From Bacilli bacterium (GTDB taxonomy: Bacteria; Bacillota_I; Bacilli_A; RFN20; CAG-826), in contig JAFYAZ010000039.1 in assembly GCA_017540455.1 (NCBI GenBank), forward strand, positions 5,587-69,586: a stretch of DNA of 64,000 nucleotides. The letters run 5' to 3'. Below, in pieces: positions 3,881 through 57,345 of the stretch. Below the pieces are notes generated by a model. That model was not told where the DNA came from. It was given only the letters and a program-made list of their open reading frames with translations, and searched no databases. The position numbers and the translations under genes are program-made. Each line of letters starts with the position of its first letter. Position 1 is the first letter of the stretch.

Positions 3881-3920
3881 AGGATGATTTTACAATAAAC
3901 GCTTAACGAAAAACCATAGC

Positions 3921-3989
3921 AAAAAGCCCCCTACTACTTAAGTAAGGGGCTAATTCATGCAGGATTTGCTAGGGATTATTTGGCTTCAG
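3921..3989. repeat. 69-bp direct repeat, copy A (left boundary of inserted island)
   Basis: 3921-3989 matches 8481-8549 at a constant offset of 4560 nt, with 2 mismatches (3952 a/g, 3988 a/g). It contains the hairpin GCCCC-C-TAC...GTA-A-GGGGC with a flanking A-run, which is a minus-strand terminator. It also carries an orphan copy of the last codons plus stop (..EAK*) of gene 8536..11613. Confidence 0.9.
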
Positions 3990-3992
3990 GAT

Positions 3993-4217
3993 TTATAAGG
4001 TATCCGAATTGCCGCTTTTTTTGAGACGATCCTCATACAAAGAGAAAAGGTAGAGGGCCGATTCGCCATATAAACCCGTCTCATCGTCATCGAGCAAATC
4101 GACGACCTCGGAATCATAGAGTCTTTTTCTCGCTTCTTCGAGGCTTAAACCATATTTCTTTGCGATGAGCTCAATGGTCCCTGTTATCAATATGGTTTTT
4201 GCGATTGTGTGTCCCAT
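3993..4217 (-). CDS. small hypothetical protein (possibly DUF3791-like)
   Basis: 74 aa. Its start overlaps the stop of the upstream 105-aa gene by 1 nt. The pattern IELIAKKYGLSLEEARKRLYDSEVVDLLDDDETGLYGES resembles the small helical DUF3791-type proteins of Firmicutes. This is recalled from memory and not verified. Confidence 0.4.
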   Translation of the reverse strand: MGHTIAKTILITGTIELIAKKYGLSLEEARKRLYDSEVVDLLDDDETGLYGESALYLFSLYEDRLKKSGNSDTL

Positions 4218-4534
4218 TATTTGGTGCCTTCCGATAATCTTTTGCCAATGTATTCGTTGATTGCGTCCGCGGACATGCCGTGCATATCTTCGTAATCGTC
4301 TGATAGTTCTTTGATGACTCCATTTTCGTCGAGGTCTCTGAAAACCTCTCTGCTACTCTTTTCGGCAAAAGAGGCATATTGCTCAACGCACATAACGATG
4401 AATCTGTTAATTTCCTTATCAAGAACCATGTTGACGCGACTTTTTCCTCTAATAAGTGAACCTTCATTCAACGCTTTTTCACGTTTTTCAGCCTTCAATA
4501 AGAACGACCGATCATTGATTTTTCGTTCAGACAT
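4217..4534 (-). CDS. small hypothetical protein (possibly DUF3791-like paralog)
   Basis: 105 aa. The segment FIVMCVEQYASFAEKSSREVFRDLDENGVIKELSDDYEDMHGMS has the same helical pattern as its downstream neighbour. It is co-oriented with the helicase gene. Confidence 0.4.
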   Translation of the reverse strand: MSERKINDRSFLLKAEKREKALNEGSLIRGKSRVNMVLDKEINRFIVMCVEQYASFAEKSSREVFRDLDENGVIKELSDDYEDMHGMSADAINEYIGKRLSEGTK

Positions 4535-4624
4535 TTACATTTCCTATATTCACGTAGTAATGTTGGCATATTTTATTACGAATTTAAATACGCGATGCAT
4601 CAAATCATAGGGTCTTGAAGAGTT

Positions 4625-7600
4625 CTATCCCTTTTCTTTGTGATTACACCTTGGGAAATTATGGCATCCATAGAACGGACCATATTTACCTTTTCTTAGA
4701 ATCATGAAATCCCCACACGAAGGACATCTCTTATTTCTTAAAACGGCTTTTGCGTCATCGATCGTATAGTCACAATAAGGATAGTTCGAACAACCATAAA
4801 ACTCTTTACCATTTGACTCATTTATCCTTAAGACTAAACGTCCTTTCTTGCACCGCGGGCACGAAATATCAGTCCTCTTCTCCTCTTCCGTGTGTTTGCC
4901 ATTCAAAACGGCGCATTGATCTTTTATCTCCTCAAGGAAAATTGAAGGGTAGTACTCGTTTGCAATGATGTATGTATAGCTTCTAGTTCTCGTTAAGGCG
5001 ACGTACCATAGACGTCTTTCCTCCGCGTAATCGTATTCGCTCTTGTGACTCAAGACCAAATCAAGAAGCTCATCATCTTCCATCTTGTTTGGGAAACCAA
5101 TTCTGTCGTCGTTCGCGTTAAGAAGAATGACGTAATCCTCTTCGAGGCCTTTGGATCCATGAACTGTGCTGTAGGTTAAGTTGATATCAGGGAAGAAAGA
5201 GCACTTCAAAACCGTCTTGGTCTCGCTTGAAGCTTTGTAGTCAATGCGAATGCGGTTGTCTAACATGATGTCCTCAAGATCTCTGTTGTTTCTTCCTAAA
5301 ACAAGCACGTTCGCCTTTTCTTCTCTCCTAGAGATATCGCTTAGTACATCAAGGAAAGGTTCATACTTCTTTCTCCCTGTGTAATACATAATTTGGACGG
5401 GATTTGCTAAGTGTTTTGCGGAATTGATCTTCTTATCGTATTGTTCCGGATTCTTTTTTATGAACGGGCCAGCGATGTCTTGAAGTTCCTGTGAATTTCT
5501 ATGGGTGGTCGTTATCATCGTGATAGCCGAATCGCCAAAGTATTTTTCGAATTCCAAGAAGATACTTAGATCGCATCCTGAAAACCTGTAGATAGCTTGC
5601 CAATCGTCTCCGACTGCGAATAGCCGCGAATCGCCTTGCAAGATCAACCTCTTTAAGAACTTCATCCTACTAACGGAAATATCCTGAAATTCGTCGACGA
5701 TGATGTATTTATACTTGTAGCCTTTGCAGTTATTGAGCTCTTCAGTTGATTGAAGGATCATATCATCGAAGTCGATTTTTCCTTCTTTTGCCAAATAAGC
5801 GATGTAGTAGTCGTAAATATCTTTGACGATATCAAGGAAAAGGGACGCTCTATGCTTCTCATAAGCGTTTTTGAATGGAGAGCTCTTCAGTTTTTCAAAT
5901 CCGCTATTGTCCCTGTATGAGGCTTTGTATAAGCTCAGGAACGATCTGACTAAGTTAATAAAAGATTTGAAAGAGTATGTCTCATAGACGGAATTAAGGG
6001 CATTGAGGATTTCTTCGTCTGGAAGCGGGTGAAACTCCACTCCCCTTTCTTTCAATTGCGATTCAAGCTTTTCAAAGACGGTGCCATCTTCAAACTCGTA
6101 CGAATATGTTTCTATGCAGTCGGTCTGATATACCTTGTGGATGCCTCTTTTCCAAATCATGGAATTCACATATTGAATAGCTTCTTCCCCGGCATACTGC
6201 GAGGCCTTGCCATCCTTATCAACTCCGTAATGTTCATGATAAATTGGATAATCCTTTAATTTGAAATCTGGCATGTATTGCCTTTTGTCCAGTGTAGAAA
6301 CGTCTTTTTCATAAGGTGCTTCGTATGTGTATTTGATGCCGTTTATGAAATACCAGTTCGCAATAGCCATCTCTTCGAATGACTTAACGAGCTCCTTTTT
6401 GAGTGTCTCTTTAGAGGCAACATTATTAGACAGAGTGAGCAATTGATCTTTAAGAGTTGTGAAATCTAGGCTCTTTAGGTCTTCAAAAAGATCGCCTTCG
6501 TTCTCGTATTCTTTGTCATGCTTCATCGTGGAAAGATACAAGCCGTAGTACATAAGGATGGTTTGAAGCATGTGCGGCCTGTTTTTCATCTCTTCCCTGA
6601 AATAGGCTTCTATGATGGCTTTGTATTGATCCTCCACCATGAATGTGTGGTTACGTGCGTCTTTTAAGATATCGAGACCGATTTTATGGAATGTTCCTAC
6701 TGTTAGCCTCTGGTCTATGGCTGACACTTTTTTCTGGAGATCATCAGCAGATTTTTTTGAATACGAAAGAAGGAGGATATCATTAGGATTCACACCCTTT
6801 TTCTTCAAGAGATATTCGACCTTGCCACATATGGTAAGAGTCTTTCCGCTTCCGGCCCCCGCCACAACAAGAACTGATTTTTCATCAGTCAAAACGGCCT
6901 TTCTTTGTTCATCGTCGAGAAAGCGGCCATTAATGTCATCAAATAGTTGGTCCTTTTTGGCTCGCTCAAAGTATTCTTGGTTATGTTTTTTTACTGCTTC
7001 ATCGAGGTTTGTATGCCTTTCAAAAGCCTCGGATAAATACTCCTTGAAAGTTATTTTCTTCAGCAAATCCGCACTTTTTGATGCAGTTTCACGCTGTCTC
7101 TCACGATCTACATATTCATCTTCGGAAAAAGCAAAGAGTTCTCTATGCTGACAGAGAAGATCGTATTGGTGACAAATTTCTTCGTAACCGATTCTCACCT
7201 TCTCAATGCCACTTAAAAAGGAGGAGTATGACTTCTCGGTAATTCTATATTTCTTAAGCAAATCTGCTACTTCAAGACATTCCGAAAAGAATTCTTTGTC
7301 GGTGTGATTAGGGTTTTTGATGAATGTTTCTAAGTTCCACCACATGACCGCTTCTCTAATGCGGCCCACTTCTTTATTGTGCTCAGCTACCTTTTCAGAA
7401 AAAGCGCCATATTTCGCCTTATCTTTTTTGTACTTTTTGGGAGGAAGCAGCGTGATCTCTTCATAGATGGAAACTATTTTGGGGTCAGTCTCTTCGTTAA
7501 CGATTTCCAAAAAACGGCCCTGTTTCTTGATGTTTCTAAAATATGGCCTGAAAACAGTAAGAACTTTGAAATATAGCTTTAGCCGTCCAAAGATATTCAA
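4625..7600 (-). CDS. helicase IV/UvrD-like SF1 DNA helicase with embedded nuclease-like motif and two C-terminal topoisomerase-type C4 zinc ribbons
   Basis: 991 aa. SF1 motifs are Walker A VVAGAGSGKTLT, motif II IIVDEFQDIS, motif III VGDDWQAIYRFSG, TVHGSKGLEEDYVILL and YVALTRTRS. There is an internal YMPDFKL...YHEHYG (PD-(D/E)xK-like) segment. The C-terminus has CPRCKKGRLV..FYGCSNYPYC and CPSCGDFMIL..FYGCHNFPRC. Confidence 0.8.
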   Translation of the reverse strand: MNIFGRLKLYFKVLTVFRPYFRNIKKQGRFLEIVNEETDPKIVSIYEEITLLPPKKYKKDKAKYGAFSEKVAEHNKEVGRIREAVMWWNLETFIKNPNHTDKEFFSECLEVADLLKKYRITEKSYSSFLSGIEKVRIGYEEICHQYDLLCQHRELFAFSEDEYVDRERQRETASKSADLLKKITFKEYLSEAFERHTNLDEAVKKHNQEYFERAKKDQLFDDINGRFLDDEQRKAVLTDEKSVLVVAGAGSGKTLTICGKVEYLLKKKGVNPNDILLLSYSKKSADDLQKKVSAIDQRLTVGTFHKIGLDILKDARNHTFMVEDQYKAIIEAYFREEMKNRPHMLQTILMYYGLYLSTMKHDKEYENEGDLFEDLKSLDFTTLKDQLLTLSNNVASKETLKKELVKSFEEMAIANWYFINGIKYTYEAPYEKDVSTLDKRQYMPDFKLKDYPIYHEHYGVDKDGKASQYAGEEAIQYVNSMIWKRGIHKVYQTDCIETYSYEFEDGTVFEKLESQLKERGVEFHPLPDEEILNALNSVYETYSFKSFINLVRSFLSLYKASYRDNSGFEKLKSSPFKNAYEKHRASLFLDIVKDIYDYYIAYLAKEGKIDFDDMILQSTEELNNCKGYKYKYIIVDEFQDISVSRMKFLKRLILQGDSRLFAVGDDWQAIYRFSGCDLSIFLEFEKYFGDSAITMITTTHRNSQELQDIAGPFIKKNPEQYDKKINSAKHLANPVQIMYYTGRKKYEPFLDVLSDISRREEKANVLVLGRNNRDLEDIMLDNRIRIDYKASSETKTVLKCSFFPDINLTYSTVHGSKGLEEDYVILLNANDDRIGFPNKMEDDELLDLVLSHKSEYDYAEERRLWYVALTRTRSYTYIIANEYYPSIFLEEIKDQCAVLNGKHTEEEKRTDISCPRCKKGRLVLRINESNGKEFYGCSNYPYCDYTIDDAKAVLRNKRCPSCGDFMILRKGKYGPFYGCHNFPRCNHKEKG

Positions 7601-7616
7601 AGCTAATCACCTCAAG

Positions 7617-8354
7617 TTACTCGTTTATCATTCCTTTTTTGTAGAACTTGAGCTTTCTGCTCATGGAAGCGTTGATGTCCATGATGTCTTTCTCTTCTAA
7701 GCAGATGACGGTGACTTTGAGCTCCTTATACACCTTCATCTTGTAATTCTTCGATTTGGTGTATTCTTTGTTGCTCTCGTTGTATCCCCAGTATTCGATA
7801 TAAACATCATCTGTGTCGTCTCCATAGCCAGGGAGGCAGAAATCAGGATGAAGGTCATGATTCTCATTGGCGTCAATCGGAAGCTTTTTCTCGTAAGCGT
7901 GAGGAATGTTATGGTCAAAGAGCCAGTTGTCGATGATCATCTCGGACTTTGATTTAACGATGTGGCCGTCGGTGCAAGTGAACTTGCCCTCGTAGGAATC
8001 GTCAAGGATGGTGATGTCCTTGCATTTGTTGATCTCGACAAGCAACTTCTTATCGGCATATTTCTTGTAACAGGAAACACAGAAAAGGAATCCTGGCTTG
8101 GTTTCTTTACCGCAGGCAATGCATTTGGCAACACCCTTTTGCTCCTGAATAGGTTTTTCCTCTTTAGGCTCGACATAATCCTTGTTGAGGACTTTGCCAG
8201 TCGCTTTATCGATGAAGAGGCCTTTTTCGTTGACCACAATCTTTTCGGCCTTGAGTTCGTCGGCATGCTTGGCGCAAAGCCTGTCTTTGCGGGCATTGCC
8301 CATATAGACTCTCGTAGGTTGTCCACAGATAGGGCACTTCAACTCTTCCTTCAT
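7617..8354 (-). CDS. zinc-ribbon protein with C-terminal PD-(D/E)xK (Vsr/DUF559-like) nuclease-fold domain
   Basis: 245 aa. It has CPICG...C..H and CIACG...CVSC zinc-ribbon pairs. The C-terminal SKSEMIIDNWLFDHNIPHAYEKKL...HPDFCLP...VYIEYWGY matches the S.SE / YE / PDF / hEhhG pattern of restriction-endonuclease-fold domains. A GGGAGG RBS precedes the start, which lies 16 nt upstream of the helicase gene. Confidence 0.6.
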   Translation of the reverse strand: MKEELKCPICGQPTRVYMGNARKDRLCAKHADELKAEKIVVNEKGLFIDKATGKVLNKDYVEPKEEKPIQEQKGVAKCIACGKETKPGFLFCVSCYKKYADKKLLVEINKCKDITILDDSYEGKFTCTDGHIVKSKSEMIIDNWLFDHNIPHAYEKKLPIDANENHDLHPDFCLPGYGDDTDDVYIEYWGYNESNKEYTKSKNYKMKVYKELKVTVICLEEKDIMDINASMSRKLKFYKKGMINE

Positions 8355-8480
8355 AACGATATGCCTCCCTTGGTTGGCTTAATGGAGAACTTAAGTATCT
8401 CCATTGTTGTTTTGGTTTTCTGGAAATATATTAGCAAAAAGGAGGCGACGATTAATAGGTTTCCTTACAATCCGTTTAGA

Positions 8481-8549
8481 AAAAAGCCCCCTACTACTTA
8501 AGTAAGGGGCTGATTCATGCAGGATTTGCTAGGGATTATTTGGCTTCGG
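8481..8549. repeat. 69-bp direct repeat, copy B (right boundary of island; functional 3' end and terminator of gene 8536..11613)
   Basis: See copy A. This copy includes the stop codon at 8536-8538 and the last four codons of the 1025-aa gene. Confidence 0.9.
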
Positions 8550-11500
8550 TTGTTTTGGAGCCGTAGTTAAGAACCTTGACGAAGTCTTCCTCAGTCATTG
8601 GACGACCGAACAAGTAACCTTCAAGTCCTTTGGCGCCAAGAGAGATGGCAAGATCCCTTTGCTCAGCGTTCTCGATACCGGTGACGTAGATGTCGAAGTC
8701 GTTTCTCATCGCTGCATCTAGGAAGCGTGAGAAGTTAGCAAGCTCGTTTTCGTTCGTGGCCGCATTCCAGATGAGAGATCTCTCGGTCTTGATGATATGG
8801 ACGCCGAAGGATTTAAGGACCTCAAGAGGAACCTTATCTGGCGTGTGGTCGACACATTCGAAGACAACGCCAAGAGGCGTGAGCTCGGACATGACCTTCT
8901 TGATGGCCTCTTCCTCGTCGAGGAAGAAGGCGCTATTGATTTCAAGATGCATGTACTCACGTGGGAAGCGGTTCCTTTCGAGAATGGCTTTGACCTTCTC
9001 TGGGAATTCTGGGTCCCTAAGGGAGTCGATGGAAAGATACATCGAAAGACACTTGATGCCGACGGCTTTGAAGATGCCTGAACCATATAAGCTATAGAGC
9101 TGACCCATCATCGAGATGGCGCCGATATCGACGCGGGAGACGAGTTTTTCTTTGTTCGCGATAGGAATGAATTCACGAGGAGCGATCGGGAGTTTGTCAC
9201 GTCCATAAAGGGCGGAACGGATATCGCCTCCGATGACCTTGAGGGTGCCGCAGTCGACGATTGGCTGAGTGAGGATCGGAAGGGCGTCAGCGTCAAGCGT
9301 AGCCTGGAGGATATCGAGGATGTACTCGCTTCTCAGGGCTTTTCTTGGGTGGCGGTTTGCGACCTCGACGACATAGCCTGGGCCATAGGTCCTCTCACTT
9401 CTGATGAGCTCGTCTTTGATGGTCTGGACCATTTGCTTGGTGGTGACGATTTCAGATGGGTATGCGACGGCGCAGAAAGCGTAGTTGGCGTTGTATCTGA
9501 ATTCCCTGGCTTCAAGAGGATGGGAAAGGATCTCCGCCGCTTCTTCGACGAAGTCCATCATCTTGATCTTGGTGTAGCCCTTAAGGAGGAAGGAGATGCT
9601 ATATGTGTCGAACCTGTAAAGGAGTTCGCCATAGCCAGCATCCTGGAAGTTGGCGACGATGGAGGACATAAGCGAGTTCGCATCGGACTGCGGGAGCTCT
9701 CTTAAGGCCGCCTCGTAATCGACGAGGGAGCAAGAGACGATATAACCGCGGGCGGTCTTGGCTTTGAGCTCACGGTTGACATCGATTGAAAGAGCCTGGG
9801 CGTTCTTGATGAGGAGGGAATCATCGACAAGATGGCTTCCGGCGACAAGGCCTTGGGTCGTGCCACGCTCGATCATGATGGTCGATTCGTCGTTATTCGC
9901 TCCACGGTACTGGAGAATCGAGATCTGGGATTCGGATGGGCCGATGCTTGGGATGACACGGTGATCAGCGCCGTATCTAAGAGGGCAATGGCTGCATGGT
10001 TTGTCATGGCCTGTACGAAGTACCTTGTAGCAGATATCGCCTTCGTGAGCGCCTGGGAAGGCGTGCTTAAGGTTATCCGACATGTAAGTGATCGTATGGG
10101 TCGGACGGTCGACGGAATAGAGGTATCTGCTGGTTCTAGAGGCAAGGTTATCGAGAAGGTCATGGAGGGAATCGTCTCTCTTAGCGAGGATGTTGCCGAT
10201 GAGCATGTTGCTGAAGAAAGAGACCGCGGTCATGAAGTCTTCTTTGCTAGAAATCGAGGTTCCACTTCTCTTATTCGGAGAAAGCATGTAGATGAAACCG
10301 TAGTCGTTATTTGGGGAATCAAGGGTGGCGATGAAGAAAGACTCCATTCCTAAGGAAAGGATTGGCTCTGCGAGTTCTTTTGGAAGATCGGTGCGGGCGT
10401 TGCCGACGAACATCGTGTCTTTCTTCGCTTCGTTCACAAATGGGCCGACGAATGATAGATGGAGAACGGAACCGAAACGGGAGAAGCCTTTGTTTCCTTC
10501 GACACGAGCAGTCTCAAAGAGGAGACGGTAGTCTCTTGTCTTCTCACCATATTCATAGACGCCGGCGACTTCAAAATCGCTTTGGGTCATGAGCCACTGG
10601 ATGGCGTTCTTCAGGGCTTCGATCTCGCCTGCGTAATCCTTCGCGTGCTTGATCTCGTATTCCCATTTCTCGAAGTTGGCGAGGAAGAGAATGCGTTTGG
10701 AGGATTCGCTTAAGATGCGGTGAGGATAGTAGACGTCTTTGACGCCGTAGCTGAGATTGACTTCCCCTTCTTCTTTGAGGGCTTTCTCAGCTTCATCTAA
10801 GAAGTTATTGAGGGAGCAATACGGATAGATGACTCCGCCGATTTTGGCATGGACAAACTTCTCAACTGAAGTCGACTTATCGATCTTCAAAACGTTGAAA
10901 TTCGTGACAAATCCCTCACAAACCGTCTCTAAACCGAGGAAGGATTCGACGTTGAAGATATAAAGGGCGAGGGTCTTTTCATCGTATTTGCCAAGCATCG
11001 AATGAGGGAAGGTTTCTCTCACTTTGGCGGTCAAGGCTTCGAAGTCTTTTTCTTCGTAGGTCTTCGCGCCCTCTAAAGAGATCAAGAGGAGAGCGCTTCG
11101 ATATGAATCGTTCTTCTGGACTTCTTTCTTTAAGTTCTCGGTGAATGTCTCTTTGTCATAGACAAGACCCTGTTCGATGTCTTTATTGATAGCCTCGTCG
11201 CTAGCTTTGCCAACATAGACAAGACGGTAGTTGGAATAGTCGGCGATCGCCTGGTTCATCTGCTGCTGAATCTCAGTGAAAGCAGGGAGAACCTTGTCAT
11301 AGTCCTTGTTGATGGTCAAGAAGTTGCCATCGGCGAAGCTTCTGATCTGGGAACTGATGTCTTTGGCGAGCTTATCACCTTTCCTTGTGTAATCAAGGCC
11401 AAGATGGATGATGGTGACCGCAACCGTCAAAGCGGAGATGAGGAGGACGCCAAAACTCACCCATAAAAGGATTTTGTTCTCAAAATAGTAGGCAAATGGG

Positions 11501-11613
11501 ATGCCAACGGCCGAAATGACGAATAAGCCAAGGAAGACGGCGCCGACCACTGTCGAAGCGCGGTTCTTAAGGAAGGCCTTAAGATTGACGAGTTTGGTTT
11601 TGTTCTTTTTCAT
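8536..11613 (-). CDS. membrane protein with degenerate GGDEF-like region(s), a Cys-rich sensor segment and a degenerate (probably non-catalytic) EAL domain; candidate c-di-GMP receptor
   Basis: 1025 aa with two N-terminal TM helices. The C-terminal EAL-fold is recognisable (LTQPIVD..., REFIPIA, LEGYLFGRPM). Its key motifs are substituted: EAL becomes SAL, ELTE becomes LEINS, DDFG becomes VDHTP, and EGVE becomes TGIE. There is no GGDEF/GGEEF signature. A CYKV..PCSHCP motif sits mid-protein. Confidence 0.6.
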   Translation of the reverse strand: MKKNKTKLVNLKAFLKNRASTVVGAVFLGLFVISAVGIPFAYYFENKILLWVSFGVLLISALTVAVTIIHLGLDYTRKGDKLAKDISSQIRSFADGNFLTINKDYDKVLPAFTEIQQQMNQAIADYSNYRLVYVGKASDEAINKDIEQGLVYDKETFTENLKKEVQKNDSYRSALLLISLEGAKTYEEKDFEALTAKVRETFPHSMLGKYDEKTLALYIFNVESFLGLETVCEGFVTNFNVLKIDKSTSVEKFVHAKIGGVIYPYCSLNNFLDEAEKALKEEGEVNLSYGVKDVYYPHRILSESSKRILFLANFEKWEYEIKHAKDYAGEIEALKNAIQWLMTQSDFEVAGVYEYGEKTRDYRLLFETARVEGNKGFSRFGSVLHLSFVGPFVNEAKKDTMFVGNARTDLPKELAEPILSLGMESFFIATLDSPNNDYGFIYMLSPNKRSGTSISSKEDFMTAVSFFSNMLIGNILAKRDDSLHDLLDNLASRTSRYLYSVDRPTHTITYMSDNLKHAFPGAHEGDICYKVLRTGHDKPCSHCPLRYGADHRVIPSIGPSESQISILQYRGANNDESTIMIERGTTQGLVAGSHLVDDSLLIKNAQALSIDVNRELKAKTARGYIVSCSLVDYEAALRELPQSDANSLMSSIVANFQDAGYGELLYRFDTYSISFLLKGYTKIKMMDFVEEAAEILSHPLEAREFRYNANYAFCAVAYPSEIVTTKQMVQTIKDELIRSERTYGPGYVVEVANRHPRKALRSEYILDILQATLDADALPILTQPIVDCGTLKVIGGDIRSALYGRDKLPIAPREFIPIANKEKLVSRVDIGAISMMGQLYSLYGSGIFKAVGIKCLSMYLSIDSLRDPEFPEKVKAILERNRFPREYMHLEINSAFFLDEEEAIKKVMSELTPLGVVFECVDHTPDKVPLEVLKSFGVHIIKTERSLIWNAATNENELANFSRFLDAAMRNDFDIYVTGIENAEQRDLAISLGAKGLEGYLFGRPMTEEDFVKVLNYGSKTTEAK

Positions 11614-11624
11614 GGCCTTTCTCC

Positions 11625-12356
11625 TTATTCGTTGACATCCTCAGTGCGGGCCACGAGGATTCGGGTGATGATCTTGCCGATTGTCGGCATCATCTCTAAG
11701 CCCGTGCGGATGTAGTTGATTCTTTCGCGTTCTTTGCCCATTTGCATCGCGACGCCTTTGATGGTCAAAAGGGCGGTGTTGTTAAGATGGCAAACCATCG
11801 CGATAGCGGCGCTTGTGTTGTCGTAAGCGCGCATGTTCTCTTCTTGGACGAGGAAGTGGTTTTGGACGATGGTTGAGACCTTATTCGGCATGAAATAGAA
11901 AGAGGAACCAGAAAGAAGGAAGCCTCTTTGGACGTATCTCGTCGTCATGAGATAAGCGTTCTTCTCAGCGCGGTCATTGATAAGGTTATCGGCGACGAAG
12001 AATGGGTCTCTTCCTGGGATTTGGCCATAGACGGCCTCTTTGTTATCGGTGAAATCGATGTCAGCGTAGAAATAACGGTCGGCGATGAATAAATCCCCTT
12101 GGCGGAGTTCGTCGCTGAAGCTATAGACCGAGCCGACATTGAAGACCATGTATGGGTCGAACTTCTCGATGATGAGGGTCATGATGATGCCGGCATCAAC
12201 AAGAGATGGTCCTGTCGCGGCAACGATGCAATCCTCACGGAAAATGCTGCCCTGATAGACTTTGAAGCCTCCGGTCAGGGTCACTTCTTTCGGATTCCCC
12301 ATCTTCGCTTTGAAATAGAGGATGTCGTCGCTAGTCGTACCGATTATGGCGATCAT
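11625..12356 (-). CDS. MTA/SAH nucleosidase (Pfs/MtnN, PNP_UDP_1 fold)-like protein, divergent
   Basis: 243 aa. It aligns by eye with E. coli MtnN: IAIIGTTSDD vs IGIIGAMEEE, YGQIPGRDPFFVAD vs YGQLPGCPAGFKAD, and SAAIAMVCH vs ATAIAHVCH. The region of the catalytic ISD(V) reads VAMQMG. Its start overlaps the stop of the upstream EAL gene (ATGA). Confidence 0.55.
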   Translation of the reverse strand: MIAIIGTTSDDILYFKAKMGNPKEVTLTGGFKVYQGSIFREDCIVAATGPSLVDAGIIMTLIIEKFDPYMVFNVGSVYSFSDELRQGDLFIADRYFYADIDFTDNKEAVYGQIPGRDPFFVADNLINDRAEKNAYLMTTRYVQRGFLLSGSSFYFMPNKVSTIVQNHFLVQEENMRAYDNTSAAIAMVCHLNNTALLTIKGVAMQMGKERERINYIRTGLEMMPTIGKIITRILVARTEDVNE

Positions 12357-13927
12357 TTGGCTACCTCCCCTGCTTTCTTCTTCTCGAATGGGTTATTGCT
12401 AAGGAATCTCTGGAATTCGAATTCGCCAAGCGGGCGGCTATAGTAATAGCCTTGGACGGCGTCGATGCCAAGTTCCTTGACGATGTTCTTCTGGATCTCG
12501 GTTTCCACGCCTTCGGCGATGGTCTTCATGCCTAAGGAATGTGAGATGTCATTGATGCAACGGACAAGGTCGCGGCTCTTCTGGTCAAGCTCAACCTCAT
12601 CGATGAAGGACTTATCGATCTTAAGGGTGTCGAAAGGAATCTTCTTTAAGGAAGAGAAAGCCGAATAGCCCATACCGAAGTCATCGATTGAGGTATCAAG
12701 GTCAAGGGCTTTGATCTTTCTGATCATGGCTGAGACGAAGACGGCGTCTTGAGCGGCCATGGATTCGGTGAGCTCAATCTCAATCCATTTAGGATTGATC
12801 TCGTATTTCTCCATCGTTTCCTTATAGAAAGAGAGGATATCTGGCGCAAGAGCGGTTTTTCTGGAAAGGTTGATGGAGACCTTAGGGATACGTTTTCCTT
12901 CGGCCTTCCACTTCTTCATGTTCTTGCAGACCTGCTCGAAGACGTATTTATCGACCTCGATGATACGGCCGGATTGCTCAGCGAACGGGATGAAGAGGGA
13001 TGGAGGGAGAAGACCACGGGATGGGTGGTTCCATCTGACAAGGGCTTCAGCGCCGAAGAAGGTTTCGTCATGAAGGTCGAATTTAGGCTGATAGAAGACT
13101 TGGAGCTGCTCTTCGTTGATGGCGTTGCCTAGTTCGCTAGAAAGGGAACGTTCGCCTTCATCATCCATCATGAATTCCTCGCTATAGACGATGACGTCGC
13201 TAGAGATACGGGATGAGAGGTTATAGGTGCCGGCGATTTGGGCTTTGCTATAGACGTCTTCGAAAGGCTGGCCATGATGGGCGTGATAGACGCCGCAAAG
13301 GATAGCGACATCAGGCATTGTGCCATCTTTCTCGAGGAGATAATTGACTCTTTGGCAGATGGACTGGAGCTCTTCGATGAAAAGGGATTCCTCCCCTCCT
13401 TTTTTGATGAGGATCCAACCCTTGGTTGGGGAGAAACCATAAGCGTAGTTCTTATTGTCTTTGCCAACCGCCTCATGTATCGCGGCATATAAAGCGTCGT
13501 TGATGATACGCGGTCCTTTTTGGCCATAGATGCTACGGAGTCGGGCGATGTTTCTGACATCGAGGACGGCAAAGAGGGATTCCGCTTTCCTTCTAAGCAT
13601 CATGTAGCGATAGTTCTGCTTCAAAGCAGATTCATTGAAGATATAGATCTCCTTCGTGAAGTTGTCTTTGGCGATATCTCTATCTATCGCCGACATCGCA
13701 AGGACGTTCTGGTAGAGAAGGGAGACGACGATGAGAACGGCGTTGACGATGATGGTGACATAAAGGCTGACGATGAAACCAGGCTTGTAGTAGCCTCTGA
13801 TCATGATCGTGTAAAGGATGATTGAGGCGATGGTGTTGATGCCTAAAAGGAGATAGATGATATAGGCGTTCCTCTGGTGGGTCTTATAAGAGAAACGGGA
13901 AGCGAAAAAGTTAAGTAATCGTCTCAT
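12353..13927 (-). CDS. membrane-bound c-di-GMP phosphodiesterase (degenerate GGDEF + canonical EAL)
   Basis: 524 aa with two N-terminal TM helices. The GGDEF position reads GFSPT, so it is degenerate. The full EAL signature set is present: QPKF, EALVRW, SINLS, EIELTES, DDFGMGYS, KIDKSF, EGVET and QGYYYSRP. Its start overlaps the sipW-like stop. Confidence 0.8.
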   Translation of the reverse strand: MRRLLNFFASRFSYKTHQRNAYIIYLLLGINTIASIILYTIMIRGYYKPGFIVSLYVTIIVNAVLIVVSLLYQNVLAMSAIDRDIAKDNFTKEIYIFNESALKQNYRYMMLRRKAESLFAVLDVRNIARLRSIYGQKGPRIINDALYAAIHEAVGKDNKNYAYGFSPTKGWILIKKGGEESLFIEELQSICQRVNYLLEKDGTMPDVAILCGVYHAHHGQPFEDVYSKAQIAGTYNLSSRISSDVIVYSEEFMMDDEGERSLSSELGNAINEEQLQVFYQPKFDLHDETFFGAEALVRWNHPSRGLLPPSLFIPFAEQSGRIIEVDKYVFEQVCKNMKKWKAEGKRIPKVSINLSRKTALAPDILSFYKETMEKYEINPKWIEIELTESMAAQDAVFVSAMIRKIKALDLDTSIDDFGMGYSAFSSLKKIPFDTLKIDKSFIDEVELDQKSRDLVRCINDISHSLGMKTIAEGVETEIQKNIVKELGIDAVQGYYYSRPLGEFEFQRFLSNNPFEKKKAGEVAK

Positions 13928-20879: not shown

Positions 20880-20935
20880 GGCGAAAGAAAAACGGCGCTA
20901 CTTCTCTCTGCGCCGCCGGGACGAGGCTTTCGCCT
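20880..20935 (-). terminator. intrinsic terminator = expression platform of the c-di-GMP riboswitch
   Basis: The minus-strand RNA is CGGCGC-agagagaagua-GCGCCG followed by UUUUUCUUU (stem at + 20893-20898 / 20910-20915). It is enclosed by an outer pairing GGCGAAAG/CUUUCGCC (+ 20928-20935 / 20880-20887). It lies ~85 nt upstream of the first start codon. Confidence 0.7.
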
Positions 20936-20997
20936 ACCATCAGAATCACTTTTGTTCCAGGGCACAAGCAGAAGATTCTGGATATTCACGCTCATCG

Positions 20998-21110
20998 ACC
21001 CAGTTGCCCACTGAATCTAGAGTACTGAACTCCAGGCAACTGGCTACCACGCATATATTGCGAGGCCCTGTAGCTTTGCGTCGCCATGTTTCCATGGGTT
21101 TGCTATACAC
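20998..21110 (-). promoter_or_regulatory. c-di-GMP-I (GEMM-I) riboswitch aptamer
   Basis: The minus-strand RNA is GCGUGUAUAGCAAACC-CAUG-GAAA-CAUG-GCGACGCAAAGCUACAGGGCCUCGCAAUAUAUGCGUGGUAGCCAGUUGCC. It contains GCAAACC, a GAAA-capped stem, the near-invariant GACGCAAAGC, the second helix GCUAC...GUAGC and a trailing CAGUUGCC. This matches my memory of Vc2 and Bacillus GEMM-I sequences. Confidence 0.8.
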
Positions 21111-21114
21111 GCAT

Positions 21115-21143
21115 ATAATAGGTAAGGATTTTTACGTTGTCAA
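21115..21143 (-). promoter_or_regulatory. SigA-type promoter driving the riboswitch and operon
   Basis: The minus strand reads TTGACA (+21143-21138), a 17-nt spacer, then TATTAT (+21120-21115). The predicted TSS is a few nt before the aptamer. Confidence 0.7.
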
Positions 21144-55380: not shown

Positions 55381-57345
55381 ATGTTCACGCAGTTAAATAT
55401 CGATGCCGGACTTGCTTTCGGCGCCTTCGCTATCGCTGCCTTTTGTTTCATTTCTTCTTTGAGAAAGAACCTAAGCCGCGTTCAGCATGTAACATATTTG
55501 ATTATCTGTATCAGCTGCCTTGTCTGTCCTCTGACCAGCATCGTGGAAGAGGTATTTTTAACATTTGGCAAAGATGGCGATGGGCTTTTATGGCTCTTCA
55601 TGGGGTCAGAAGTCCTCTTCTTTTTCTTCCACTCCTTCTTAGCTCCTTCCTTTGGCTTATATGTCTTGTCCCTTAACGGCACCCTCGTAGGACGCAAGAA
55701 GAGGCTTTGGTTCATCTACTGGATCCCGGTCATGCTCGTCGAGATCGCCAATATCGCCAACATCTTCTTCCCACGCGATGCGAGACCGTTATATACGGTC
55801 ACCGTCGCAGAAGCGGGCAACTACGTCTACCAAAGAGGCGATTTCATGTTCATCTTCTACATCATCGCCGGTCTTTATGTTCTCCTTAGCCTTTTCGCCT
55901 TCATCAGAAACATCAGGGCCCTCAACGCCAGAAAGATCGTTTCGCTTTTAAGCTTCTACACCGCTACTCTCGCAGGCGTCGTCATCCAGTTCTTCTGGAA
56001 GGAAATCAAATTAGAGGCCTTCTTCGAATCCTTCTCAATCCTTGGACTTCTCATCCTCTTAGAAAGCGACACCGGCATCATCAATAACAACACCGGCTTA
56101 TATAACGAGATCGCTTTCTATAACGACAATGCGACCGCGATGGCCGCTAAACGCAAATACAGCATCATCACTTTGCAGTCCCCTGACTATTTCCAGTATC
56201 TTGAGATGCTTGGTCAAACCAACTACAACGGAATTGAGATATTGGTCGCTAGATACTTAACAAGCATTGTTAAATCTCAATATGTCTACCAACTTTCAAA
56301 CGGTGCCTTCGGCATCATGCTATACGAGGAGAAGGAATCGGACGTCGACATGATCATAGAGATGATTCAGCACAGATTCGAAGAGCCATTCGGTTATGGC
56401 GCGATCGAAGCCTCACCAAGATGGAACATCACCGTTGCGAAAGTCCCTAATGACATTGAGGATCCAAGCCAGCTCCACTACCTCTTCGCCGGAAAGAACG
56501 GAGGCTTTGAGCAGAAGGTCATCATCCGCGATAGCCTTTCCCTTAGGTTCATCAAGCGCAGAAGCAAGATCGAAGGCGCGATTGCCCGCGGCCTTAGAGA
56601 CAACAACTTCAAAGTCTATTACCAGCCAATCTGGGATGCCTCCCGCAATAAAATACTCTCTGCCGAAGCCCTTCTTAGGCTCATCGATCCTGAGCTTGGT
56701 TTCATCGGCCCAGATGAGTTCATCCCTGTCGCCGAAGAAAACGGAACCATCATTGAGCTCGGACACTGGGTTTTCGAAGAAGCCTGCAAAATGGCGAAGA
56801 AAAACGAAATCAGGAACCTCGGAATCGAGTGGCTTGAGATCAATCTCTCCGTCAATCAGCTTCCAGAGAAAGACTTGCCAGGAAGATTCCTTGAGATAGC
56901 CCATAGATTCGACCTTCCACCGTCATTCCTTAATATCGAAGTCACAGAGAGTGCAGATGCCGCGAATGATAACGAACTTGCCGACCGTATCCAAAACCTT
57001 GTTAAGGTTGGCTTCCCTCTTTCCCTTGATGACTACGGAACCGGGTATTCGAACTTCACCCGCCTCATCAAGAGCAGGTTCAGGACCATCAAGATCGACC
57101 GCTCACTCCTTCTTTCCGCTGAGCAAGGCCCGATCGGAAAATCAGTCCTCTCAAGCATCTACAAGACGATGAATGGACTTAGCTTCCGTACCATCCAGGA
57201 AGGCGTTGAGACCGAGGAGCAAAAGAACCTCATCCTCTCCTTCGGAGCCCAGATGATTCAGGGCTACTTCTTCTCTAAGCCAATTCCTGAAGAAGAGTTC
57301 ATCGAATACGTCATGAAGTTCAACAAAATCAAACACATCTCCTAA
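55381..57345 (+). CDS. polytopic membrane sensor with degenerate GGDEF-like linker and canonical EAL c-di-GMP phosphodiesterase domain
   Basis: 654 aa with ~6-7 N-terminal TM helices. EAL signatures are YQPIWD, AEALLRL, EINLS, NIEVTES, LDDYGTGYS, KIDRSL, EGVETEEQ and QGYFFSKP. There is no GGDEF motif. Confidence 0.75.
   Translation: MFTQLNIDAGLAFGAFAIAAFCFISSLRKNLSRVQHVTYLIICISCLVCPLTSIVEEVFLTFGKDGDGLLWLFMGSEVLFFFFHSFLAPSFGLYVLSLNGTLVGRKKRLWFIYWIPVMLVEIANIANIFFPRDARPLYTVTVAEAGNYVYQRGDFMFIFYIIAGLYVLLSLFAFIRNIRALNARKIVSLLSFYTATLAGVVIQFFWKEIKLEAFFESFSILGLLILLESDTGIINNNTGLYNEIAFYNDNATAMAAKRKYSIITLQSPDYFQYLEMLGQTNYNGIEILVARYLTSIVKSQYVYQLSNGAFGIMLYEEKESDVDMIIEMIQHRFEEPFGYGAIEASPRWNITVAKVPNDIEDPSQLHYLFAGKNGGFEQKVIIRDSLSLRFIKRRSKIEGAIARGLRDNNFKVYYQPIWDASRNKILSAEALLRLIDPELGFIGPDEFIPVAEENGTIIELGHWVFEEACKMAKKNEIRNLGIEWLEINLSVNQLPEKDLPGRFLEIAHRFDLPPSFLNIEVTESADAANDNELADRIQNLVKVGFPLSLDDYGTGYSNFTRLIKSRFRTIKIDRSLLLSAEQGPIGKSVLSSIYKTMNGLSFRTIQEGVETEEQKNLILSFGAQMIQGYFFSKPIPEEEFIEYVMKFNKIKHIS

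Follow-up and report, generated by a model that had tools for sequence, protein, structure and literature searches.

The stretch of DNA analyzed here (the window; 64,000 nucleotides, contig C16, positions 5587-69586) comes from an uncultured rumen bacterium with a metagenome-assembled genome (MAG) of 1.16 Mb that is 92% complete. It carries a surface-fibre operon under a riboswitch for cyclic diguanylate (c-di-GMP), and the last three genes of this operon, called F, G, and H, are the subject of this report. The operon consists of eight closely packed open reading frames (ORFs) on the minus strand, and the 12.6-kb unit is bounded by a c-di-GMP-I riboswitch and a strong terminator. Genes A (20797-19769, 342 aa), B (19755-18694, 353 aa), C (18669-17083, 528 aa, membrane-anchored), and D (17041-14990, 683 aa) are followed by gene E (14985-13924, 353 aa), which lies directly upstream of F. 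E encodes a SipW-type signal peptidase (NCBIfam SipW, E=3.6e-14; TIGR02228, E=2.4e-10) with transmembrane (TM) segments at residues 8-37 and 225-258 and a coiled-coil tail. Gene F (13927-12353, 524 aa) encodes a predicted c-di-GMP phosphodiesterase (PDE) with a TM hairpin, a degenerate GGDEF domain, and an intact EAL domain. Gene G (12356-11625, 243 aa) encodes an MTAN-fold (PNP_UDP_1) protein, and gene H (11613-8536, 1025 aa) encodes a multi-domain membrane protein with dead GGDEF and EAL domains. Membrane anchors are predicted in C, E, F, and H. The operon codes for secreted subunits that depend on SipW, for a McrB-like NTPase of the membrane with its coiled-coil partner, and for a SipW-like peptidase. 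It thus shares with CoCoPALM systems (Bell, Sahakyan, Makarova, Wolf, and Koonin, eLife 2024, PMC11090510) a signal peptidase, a McrB GTPase of the membrane or FtsB-like kind, and a McrC-like coiled-coil partner.

An earlier note on this DNA, made from the sequence alone, had placed the three genes behind sipW with tight junctions, and the ORF coordinates bear this out. E/F and F/G overlap by 4 nt (ATGA), and G and H are separated by an 11-nt gap. F, G, and H are each preceded by their own Shine-Dalgarno sequence. A sigma-70-type promoter-like site (TTGACA-17-TATTAT; 21115..21143, minus strand) matches 11 of 12 consensus positions and abuts the aptamer on its upstream side. At the other end, an intrinsic terminator (8485..8511, minus strand; 11-bp stem followed by UUUUUU) lies 25 nt past the H stop codon and is the strongest in the region. 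An internal promoter or terminator could uncouple the three genes from the riboswitch; a consensus scan of the minus strand between E and H, which is weak evidence by itself, found none comparable. Genes A to H, through the terminator after H, are predicted to form one transcription unit.

A seed search with H against 40 relatives recovered full-length homologues, 19-84% identical, and some 0.8 kb upstream of each there is an EAL gene. The full A-B-C-D-E-F-G-H order was found in seven genomes (same-genus genomes and one from another family), and an Rfam c-di-GMP-I aptamer is present upstream of A in all seven. For a wider census, a scan for the AAA protein in one genome per species gave at least 519 loci; 80 were fetched and searched with hidden Markov models built from the seed orthologues. 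Among the 55 species-level loci with enough flanking sequence, 53 keep the A-B-C-D-E-F-G order with F and G behind E; in the remaining two, the F slot is occupied by a decayed protein. The genes are separated by at most 15 nt at the E-F junction in 60/62 loci, at F-G in 59/59 (exactly -4 in 39), and at G-H in 36/37. A riboswitch is present upstream in 55 of the 63 loci with sufficient upstream sequence (model R1). H is directly behind G in 32 of 48 loci; when five genomes seemingly lacking H were searched whole, four had a full-length H just beyond the fetched region, adjoining the cluster. Because the order and the tight junctions recur in about 55 species-level genomes, with H identity down to 17-25%, the arrangement is not due to chance. 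The MAGs with related loci are titled Ca. Enteromonas, Ca. Alloenteromonas, Ca. Onthovivens, and 'Erysipelotrichaceae RUG', and they represent uncultured rumen and gut Bacilli. The coupling of F-G-H to a riboswitch-gated operon, and the conservation of this coupling, indicate that a leader that senses c-di-GMP drives an enzyme predicted to degrade it.

Alloenteromonas-type loci (L050, L053, L055, L056, L057, and L062) and also L083 have a second c-di-GMP-I aptamer about 55-72 nt after G. Behind this aptamer come the genes for one protein of roughly 920-1000 aa, which has no Pfam match, and for two of roughly 310 aa; in genomes G435 and G436 H comes after these.

CoCoPALM loci outside the order were sampled by a phylum-wide genome search, which yielded loci from six other families (L102-L107). 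F-G-H was absent at these loci, and the R1 riboswitch was found at three of the six. In other orders of the class, an A-B-E-C-D-E core is present, in which two SipW-like genes flank the NTPase pair. F-G-H can be discarded as a universal CoCoPALM component; unlike the CoCoPALM loci sampled elsewhere, this order's version carries it. Its absence from the sampled loci of other families indicates that a more widespread fibre operon acquired it in one lineage, which has inherited it stably. Locus L102 has an EAL gene whose end lies shortly upstream of the riboswitch.

The EAL domain of F was identified with Pfam PF00563 (residues 265-499; 221 bits against a cut-off of 31.3). Its catalytic and metal-binding set is complete, comprising E(AL)xR, N, E(L)TE, DDFG, KxD, E(GVE), and QG. 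In an alignment of 57 orthologues, residues Q280, E294, L296, R298, N353, E385, E388, D415, D416, K436, D438, E472, and Q492 are invariant, and so are the motif contexts E294-A-L296-x-R298, D415-D416-F-G, and Q492-G493. Judged from this alignment, the EAL site is under strong purifying selection. The earlier note had predicted an active PDE with a canonical EAL domain; since all of the catalytic residues are invariant in the 57 orthologues, F is very probably an active, membrane-anchored c-di-GMP phosphodiesterase. Residues 85-262 form a degenerate GGDEF domain in which the motif is replaced (hhalign probability of 93.8% against the genome's real GGDEF domains). The N-terminus has TM segments at residues 20-44 and 48-82, a hairpin with no outside domain. 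An RxxD I-site was sought in the middle domain of F by hhalign alignment to real GGDEF domains and was not found, and a role for F as an I-site receptor was rejected for want of this motif. MorA and RbdA of Pseudomonas aeruginosa, PdeR/YciR of Escherichia coli, and DosP have the same tandem of degenerate GGDEF and EAL domains, with the full catalytic EAL set, as F does. What sets F apart from these class I EAL phosphodiesterases is its bare TM hairpin anchor, its place in a structural operon that a riboswitch controls, and its invariable pairing with a pseudo-MTAN.

G was described in the earlier note as Pfs-like. This holds for the fold but not for the residues of catalysis. G belongs to the PNP_UDP_1/MTAN-like proteins and matches MTAN structures in the PDB down to E=1e-22. 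It scores 80.1 bits with TIGR01704 (cut-off 73.8) and 83 bits with NF004079 (cut-off 169). Compared with PDB MTANs, G has the substitutions E172 to D, M173 to N, E174 to T, R193 to K, S196 to A, and D197 to M, so that neither the MTAN general acid Asp197 nor the ribose-binding pair Met173-Glu174 is found in it. Across 60 G orthologues, the D197 column contains Y, L, A, M, G, or R and the E174 column is variable, while D10, G75, G87-D88, P114, S149, and D179 are conserved. A second MTAN homologue in the same genome, on contig C45, keeps the VEME and ISD motifs. Because the catalytic residues are gone from G and an intact MTAN is encoded elsewhere in the genome, G was rejected as the housekeeping Pfs; from its residues, it is a predicted pseudoenzyme or an enzyme of altered chemistry. 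The invariable tight coupling of G to F suggests that G is F's partner. MTAN-fold pseudoenzymes such as the N-domain of Spiroplasma Fib, to which G has a weak NCBIfam match, share the fold, as does MtnN/Pfs itself. Unlike MtnN/Pfs, G has Asp197, Glu174, and Met173 replaced and is genomically tied to an EAL phosphodiesterase. No paper that we found describes the pairing of an MTAN-fold protein with an EAL phosphodiesterase.

H was modelled with AlphaFold2 from a 31-sequence alignment (mean predicted confidence, pLDDT, 84), and residues 296-600 were modelled a second time (pLDDT 85). Its domains are a TM hairpin (residues 18-75), a first degenerate GGDEF (137-290), a GAF domain (300-450), a long helix, a three-cysteine PAS/PHY-like domain (Cys3; 494-585), a second degenerate GGDEF (600-752), and a degenerate EAL (761-1018). 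Foldseek matched the C-terminal half to PAS-GGDEF-EAL proteins (DosP, RbdA, PA0575, MorA, and LapD), with a TM-score of 0.9 for the EAL part, and the middle to GAF domains and phytochrome GAF-PHY modules. By hhalign, GGDEF-like domain 2 matches real GGDEF domains with a probability of 97% and domain 1 with 63%; domain 1 matches the F middle domain with 88%. GAF and PAS controls against the same H domains gave about 0%. Pfam searches with isolated H and F sub-domains gave no match even at E<=5. With the full protein, Pfam detected the EAL domain at 91 bits. SAL stands in place of EAL and VDHT in place of DDFG; further losses in the EAL-like domain are N to Y (Y859), the second E of ELTE to S (S894), DD to VD (V921), the first E of EGVE to T, and Q to E (E998). 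The earlier note's statement that the catalytic signatures are lost (SAL and VDHTP) therefore stands, whereas its description of H as a typical c-di-GMP-binding effector does not, because the pocket residues are variable and neither an RxxD motif nor a periplasmic domain is present.

A c-di-GMP receptor of the LapD or FimX type would bind the nucleotide through its degenerate EAL (or GGDEF) domain and gate fibre secretion or assembly post-translationally, leaving turnover to F. H resembles such receptors in having the PAS-GGDEF-EAL fold of LapD-, FimX-, and MorA-like proteins with the catalytic residues lost, as in known receptors, and it is membrane-anchored and encoded beside a secretion-related machine. 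Moreover, the H protein of the window keeps Q783, E891, D922, K942, and E981, and this particular H may thus bind c-di-GMP. The family gives a different picture. Among 31 orthologues, the E of EAL is replaced by L, A, I, P, or S, the Arg of ExLxR is absent, the Asn position contains N, Y, T, or P, and DDFG is variable. Conservation of >=80% is reached by only 7 of the 237 EAL-like columns, none of them catalytic or part of the canonical ligand pocket, compared with 66 of 235 columns in the EAL domain of F from the same genomes. No canonical ligand-contact or metal position is conserved across the 31 orthologues. Alignments made with hhalign located no RxxD I-site (five residues upstream of the GGDEF position) in either GGDEF-like domain, and no site of the PelD/YdaK/PssE type; H was rejected as an I-site receptor on this ground. 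Neither TM prediction nor the model contains a periplasmic output domain (TM segments 18-45 and 46-75 have no loop between them), which excludes a LapD-like inside-out transducer. Taken with these points, receptor function for H is unlikely. Judging from its alignment and model, H has the look of a cytoplasmic scaffold with several sensors and not of a canonical c-di-GMP receptor. Compared with RbdA, DosP, and MorA, the C-terminal half of H shares the PAS-GGDEF-EAL fold, but both catalytic sites are lost. LapD and FimX likewise have GGDEF and EAL folds without catalytic motifs, but the ligand-contact residues of H are not conserved and a periplasmic domain is missing. H is closer to the non-binding scaffolds CsrD, YdiV, and BluF/YcgF, to which it adds the GAF and Cys3 PAS-like domains.

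The best-conserved part of H is the Cys3 PAS-like domain, with C528-x11-C540-x2-C543-P-L. Its motif, C-Y-K-A-L-x-G-x-D-x-P-C-x-x-C-P-L, is near-invariant (window 10026-10031 for C528 and 9987-9995 for C540-C543), and D597 is conserved too. The domain has no Pfam match and no PDB match by sequence search. The cysteines may form a metal or Fe-S site.

The genome-wide c-di-GMP network was surveyed for sources and sinks of the signal. As the earlier note had claimed, the window contains no intact GGDEF protein and three EAL proteins: Pfam found no GGDEF match on the window's contig, and the EAL proteins are F, H, and a 654-aa protein. The genome does contain 8-9 intact GG(D/E)EF proteins, all encoded outside the window. 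The sinks are three intact EAL proteins, F included, and one HD-GYP protein. The 654-aa protein (55381-57345, plus strand) has an EAL match of 198 bits and a weak GGDEF match; homologues of about 655 aa occur across the genus, and the gene is unlinked to the fibre operon. There are two c-di-GMP-I riboswitches in the genome, and the second is outside the window (C28:17329-17402, minus strand). Downstream of it are the genes of three large proteins (391, 1113, and 1452 aa), whose hydrophobic N-termini resemble SipW-type signals. Both riboswitches would thus govern exported proteins, and F could influence either one; it is plausible that riboswitch-driven F feeds back on the second regulon as well as on its own leader.

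We propose that F-G-H is a c-di-GMP control module appended 3' of a riboswitch-gated, CoCoPALM-type fibre operon and that it forms a self-limiting feedback loop, and we give this reading a probability of about 0.6. Ligand bound to the aptamer would block the anti-aptamer/terminator hairpin (an ON switch), and high c-di-GMP would lead to transcription of the whole operon. F would then build up in the membrane beside the fibre machinery and hydrolyze c-di-GMP. Riboswitch occupancy would drop, holding fibre expression to a pulse or set point, and the drop would reach the second c-di-GMP-I riboswitch too. G may be a non-enzymatic or altered-function partner of F, for example a regulatory or ligand-sensing subunit. 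H may be a cytoplasmic signal integrator (GAF and Cys3 PAS-like domains) whose dead GGDEF and EAL domains provide interaction surfaces that tune F or the machinery, and not a canonical c-di-GMP receptor. The earlier note had proposed an autoregulatory circuit. The coupling of these genes to a riboswitch-gated operon is conserved; the sign of the loop was missing from that proposal, and related leaders point to ON and negative feedback, which for this window is an inference.

The c-di-GMP-I (GEMM-I) aptamer lies at 21032..21114 on the minus strand (Rfam RF01051, 56.5 bits against a gathering score of 35). The anti-aptamer element GGGCAACUGG (21000..21009, minus strand) is the complement of the aptamer 3' strand CCAGUUGCC (21035-21043), with which it is paired in the minimum-free-energy fold of the leader. 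Further downstream is a leader terminator hairpin, CGGCGGCGC...GCGCCG then UUUUU (20880..20934, minus strand), set within an outer GGCGAAAG/CUUUCGCC helix with a fold of -22 kcal/mol. This hairpin is kept in the leaders of the closest relatives, including L026. A complement of the aptamer 3' strand occurs 20-40 nt downstream in 59 of 60 related leaders, that of the window included, and in about 33 of the 60 a U-run directly behind the complement makes it a terminator that competes with the aptamer. These related leaders indicate an ON-type terminator design, and negative feedback is therefore the likelier sign. For the window itself, we infer from these relatives that an ON leader, and with it negative feedback, is likely. 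From the anti-aptamer element to the leader terminator, roughly 100 nt (window 20935-20999; homologous in L022-L027) are strongly conserved even in L026, with the motifs ATCCAGA..TCTTCT, GCCCTGGAAC, and AAGTGATTCTGATGGTA. This suggests an extra layer of the expression platform. Inspection of the leader against L026 for a conserved antiterminator pairing gave none that was convincing.

The points that weigh against the proposed loop begin in the leader. The anti-aptamer hairpin of the window has no U-run, the separate terminator at 20880-20934 is predicted to fold with or without the aptamer, and the ON assignment draws on relatives and on the conserved long expression platform. Folding energies alone were discarded as a guide to ON/OFF logic, since the downstream terminator forms either way; the related leaders were used instead. 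If the clade's switch were OFF, the operon and its phosphodiesterase would be made at low c-di-GMP and F would lower the signal further, giving positive feedback and bistable commitment in place of a self-limiting pulse. The missing U-run and the indifferent terminator are compatible with such logic. Surface-fibre and adhesion genes are usually induced by c-di-GMP, which argues for the opposite sign. Both signs are known among class I c-di-GMP riboswitches (reviewed in PMC6366702), but the terminator that about half of the related leaders build from the aptamer 3' strand, its complement, and a U-run is the classic ON design, and the near-universal retention of the complement extends to this leader. 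An OFF switch is therefore considered improbable.

Ligand identity bears on the loop as well. A change at G20 in GEMM-Ib riboswitches can widen specificity towards cGAMP (3'3'-cyclic GMP-AMP), and A20 aptamer variants in Geobacter sense cGAMP. The aptamer of the window has A, not G, at the position equivalent to G20 of Vc2, which counts against the loop too. In Vc2 this base touches one guanine of the ligand (PMC5888326). Of the operon-leader aptamers (L022-L101), 29 have A at the equivalent base, 14 have C, and 8 have G; a C where the ligand is contacted is unusual. An A20-type aptamer that senses 3'3'-cGAMP or another dinucleotide would leave the EAL enzyme closing no loop on the riboswitch. 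Such an aptamer is hard to reconcile with an EAL phosphodiesterase and EAL/GGDEF-derived proteins invariantly tied to the riboswitch, or with a genome that encodes 8-9 standard GGDEF proteins. Furthermore, G-type and A-type aptamers both head orthologous operons, suggesting the same ligand for both. We regard a different ligand as very unlikely.

The F slot itself provides a further point against the loop. In one subclade (L061, L074, L080, and L082), the F-slot protein has a weak, decayed, or absent EAL domain (L061:13857-15143, L074:12342-13712, L080:6027-6689, and L082:13746-15170), and G (and H) are still there. This suggests that the F slot has a role beyond catalysis and that catalysis is dispensable in these loci. 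F could serve the fibre machine mainly as a local sink or trigger, insulating or timing the complex of McrB-like NTPase and SipW, for example through G/H contacts, with no global feedback on the riboswitch. The membrane anchoring of F, H, C, and E fits a local role, as does translational coupling of F, G, and H, which is expected of a stoichiometric complex, and survival of the slot after EAL decay points to a structural function. However, the invariant EAL site in 57 orthologues implies that hydrolysis is the selected function in most lineages, and with only about four predicted phosphodiesterases in the genome, an induced one should change the c-di-GMP pool of the whole cell. F could also have a local and a global role at once. 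We consider a mainly local role for F doubtful. A last point against the loop as proposed is that the roles given to G and H come from their anatomy alone.

A more speculative extension, to which we assign a low probability, is that the EAL phosphodiesterase and the dead MTAN-fold protein, usually with H, form an unrecognized phosphodiesterase holoenzyme. G would be a sensor of purine nucleosides or nucleotides (pGpG, guanosine, or methylthioadenosine), and H would supply a redox or metal input through Cys3 (possibly Fe-S or Zn). If this is true, fibre production by a McrBC-derived machine would be ruled by a metabolite-tuned feedback circuit that is closed by a riboswitch.

The region behind the operon has a structure of its own. 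A 71-nt direct repeat, 97% identical, occurs at 3917-3987 and 8477-8547 and carries the last codons of H and the terminator. Between the two copies lies a 4.56-kb insert (3988-8476) with genes for a UvrD-like helicase that has topoisomerase-type Zn fingers (4625-7600) and for a Zn-ribbon protein (7617-8354). The insert looks like an island that landed just behind the operon and duplicated its target.

Feedback of this kind has some precedent. In 2008, Sudarsan et al. reportedly noted the feedback idea, and that some GEMM RNAs precede diguanylate cyclase or phosphodiesterase genes. The c-di-GMP-I regulons of Vibrio cholerae (Vc1/Vc2), Clostridioides difficile, and the Bacillus cereus group (Bc1/Bc2) also have a GEMM-I aptamer and a terminator-type platform over surface or adhesion genes; by comparison, the phosphodiesterase here is a fixed operon member in dozens of species. 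Riboswitches for c-di-GMP have been described as rarely controlling c-di-GMP metabolic genes (PMC6366702). CoCoPALM is covered in one paragraph of its source paper, in which EAL, GGDEF, c-di-GMP, and nucleosidase-like genes are not mentioned (PMC11090510), and a literature search found no follow-up paper on it. The feedback loop itself is thus rare but foreseen. As far as we found, the fixed EAL/pseudo-MTAN pair, the architecture of H, and the attachment of the module to CoCoPALM operons lack an earlier description.

On the in silico evidence, the conserved c-di-GMP control module is well supported and real. Throughout an order of bacteria that abound in gut and rumen, a phosphodiesterase is fixed in an operon gated by a riboswitch and is translationally coupled there, and the finding gives the uncharacterized CoCoPALM fibre systems a concrete regulatory input. 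It also leaves the conservation of two pseudoenzymes to explain: the MTAN-fold protein, which always accompanies an EAL enzyme, and the protein that joins a Cys3 sensor domain to two dead GGDEF domains and a dead EAL domain. As their genomes are small (about 1-2 Mb), these bacteria have a c-di-GMP network of few parts (8-9 cyclases, about four phosphodiesterases, and two riboswitches), a compact natural setting in which to study how RNA feeds back on a second messenger.

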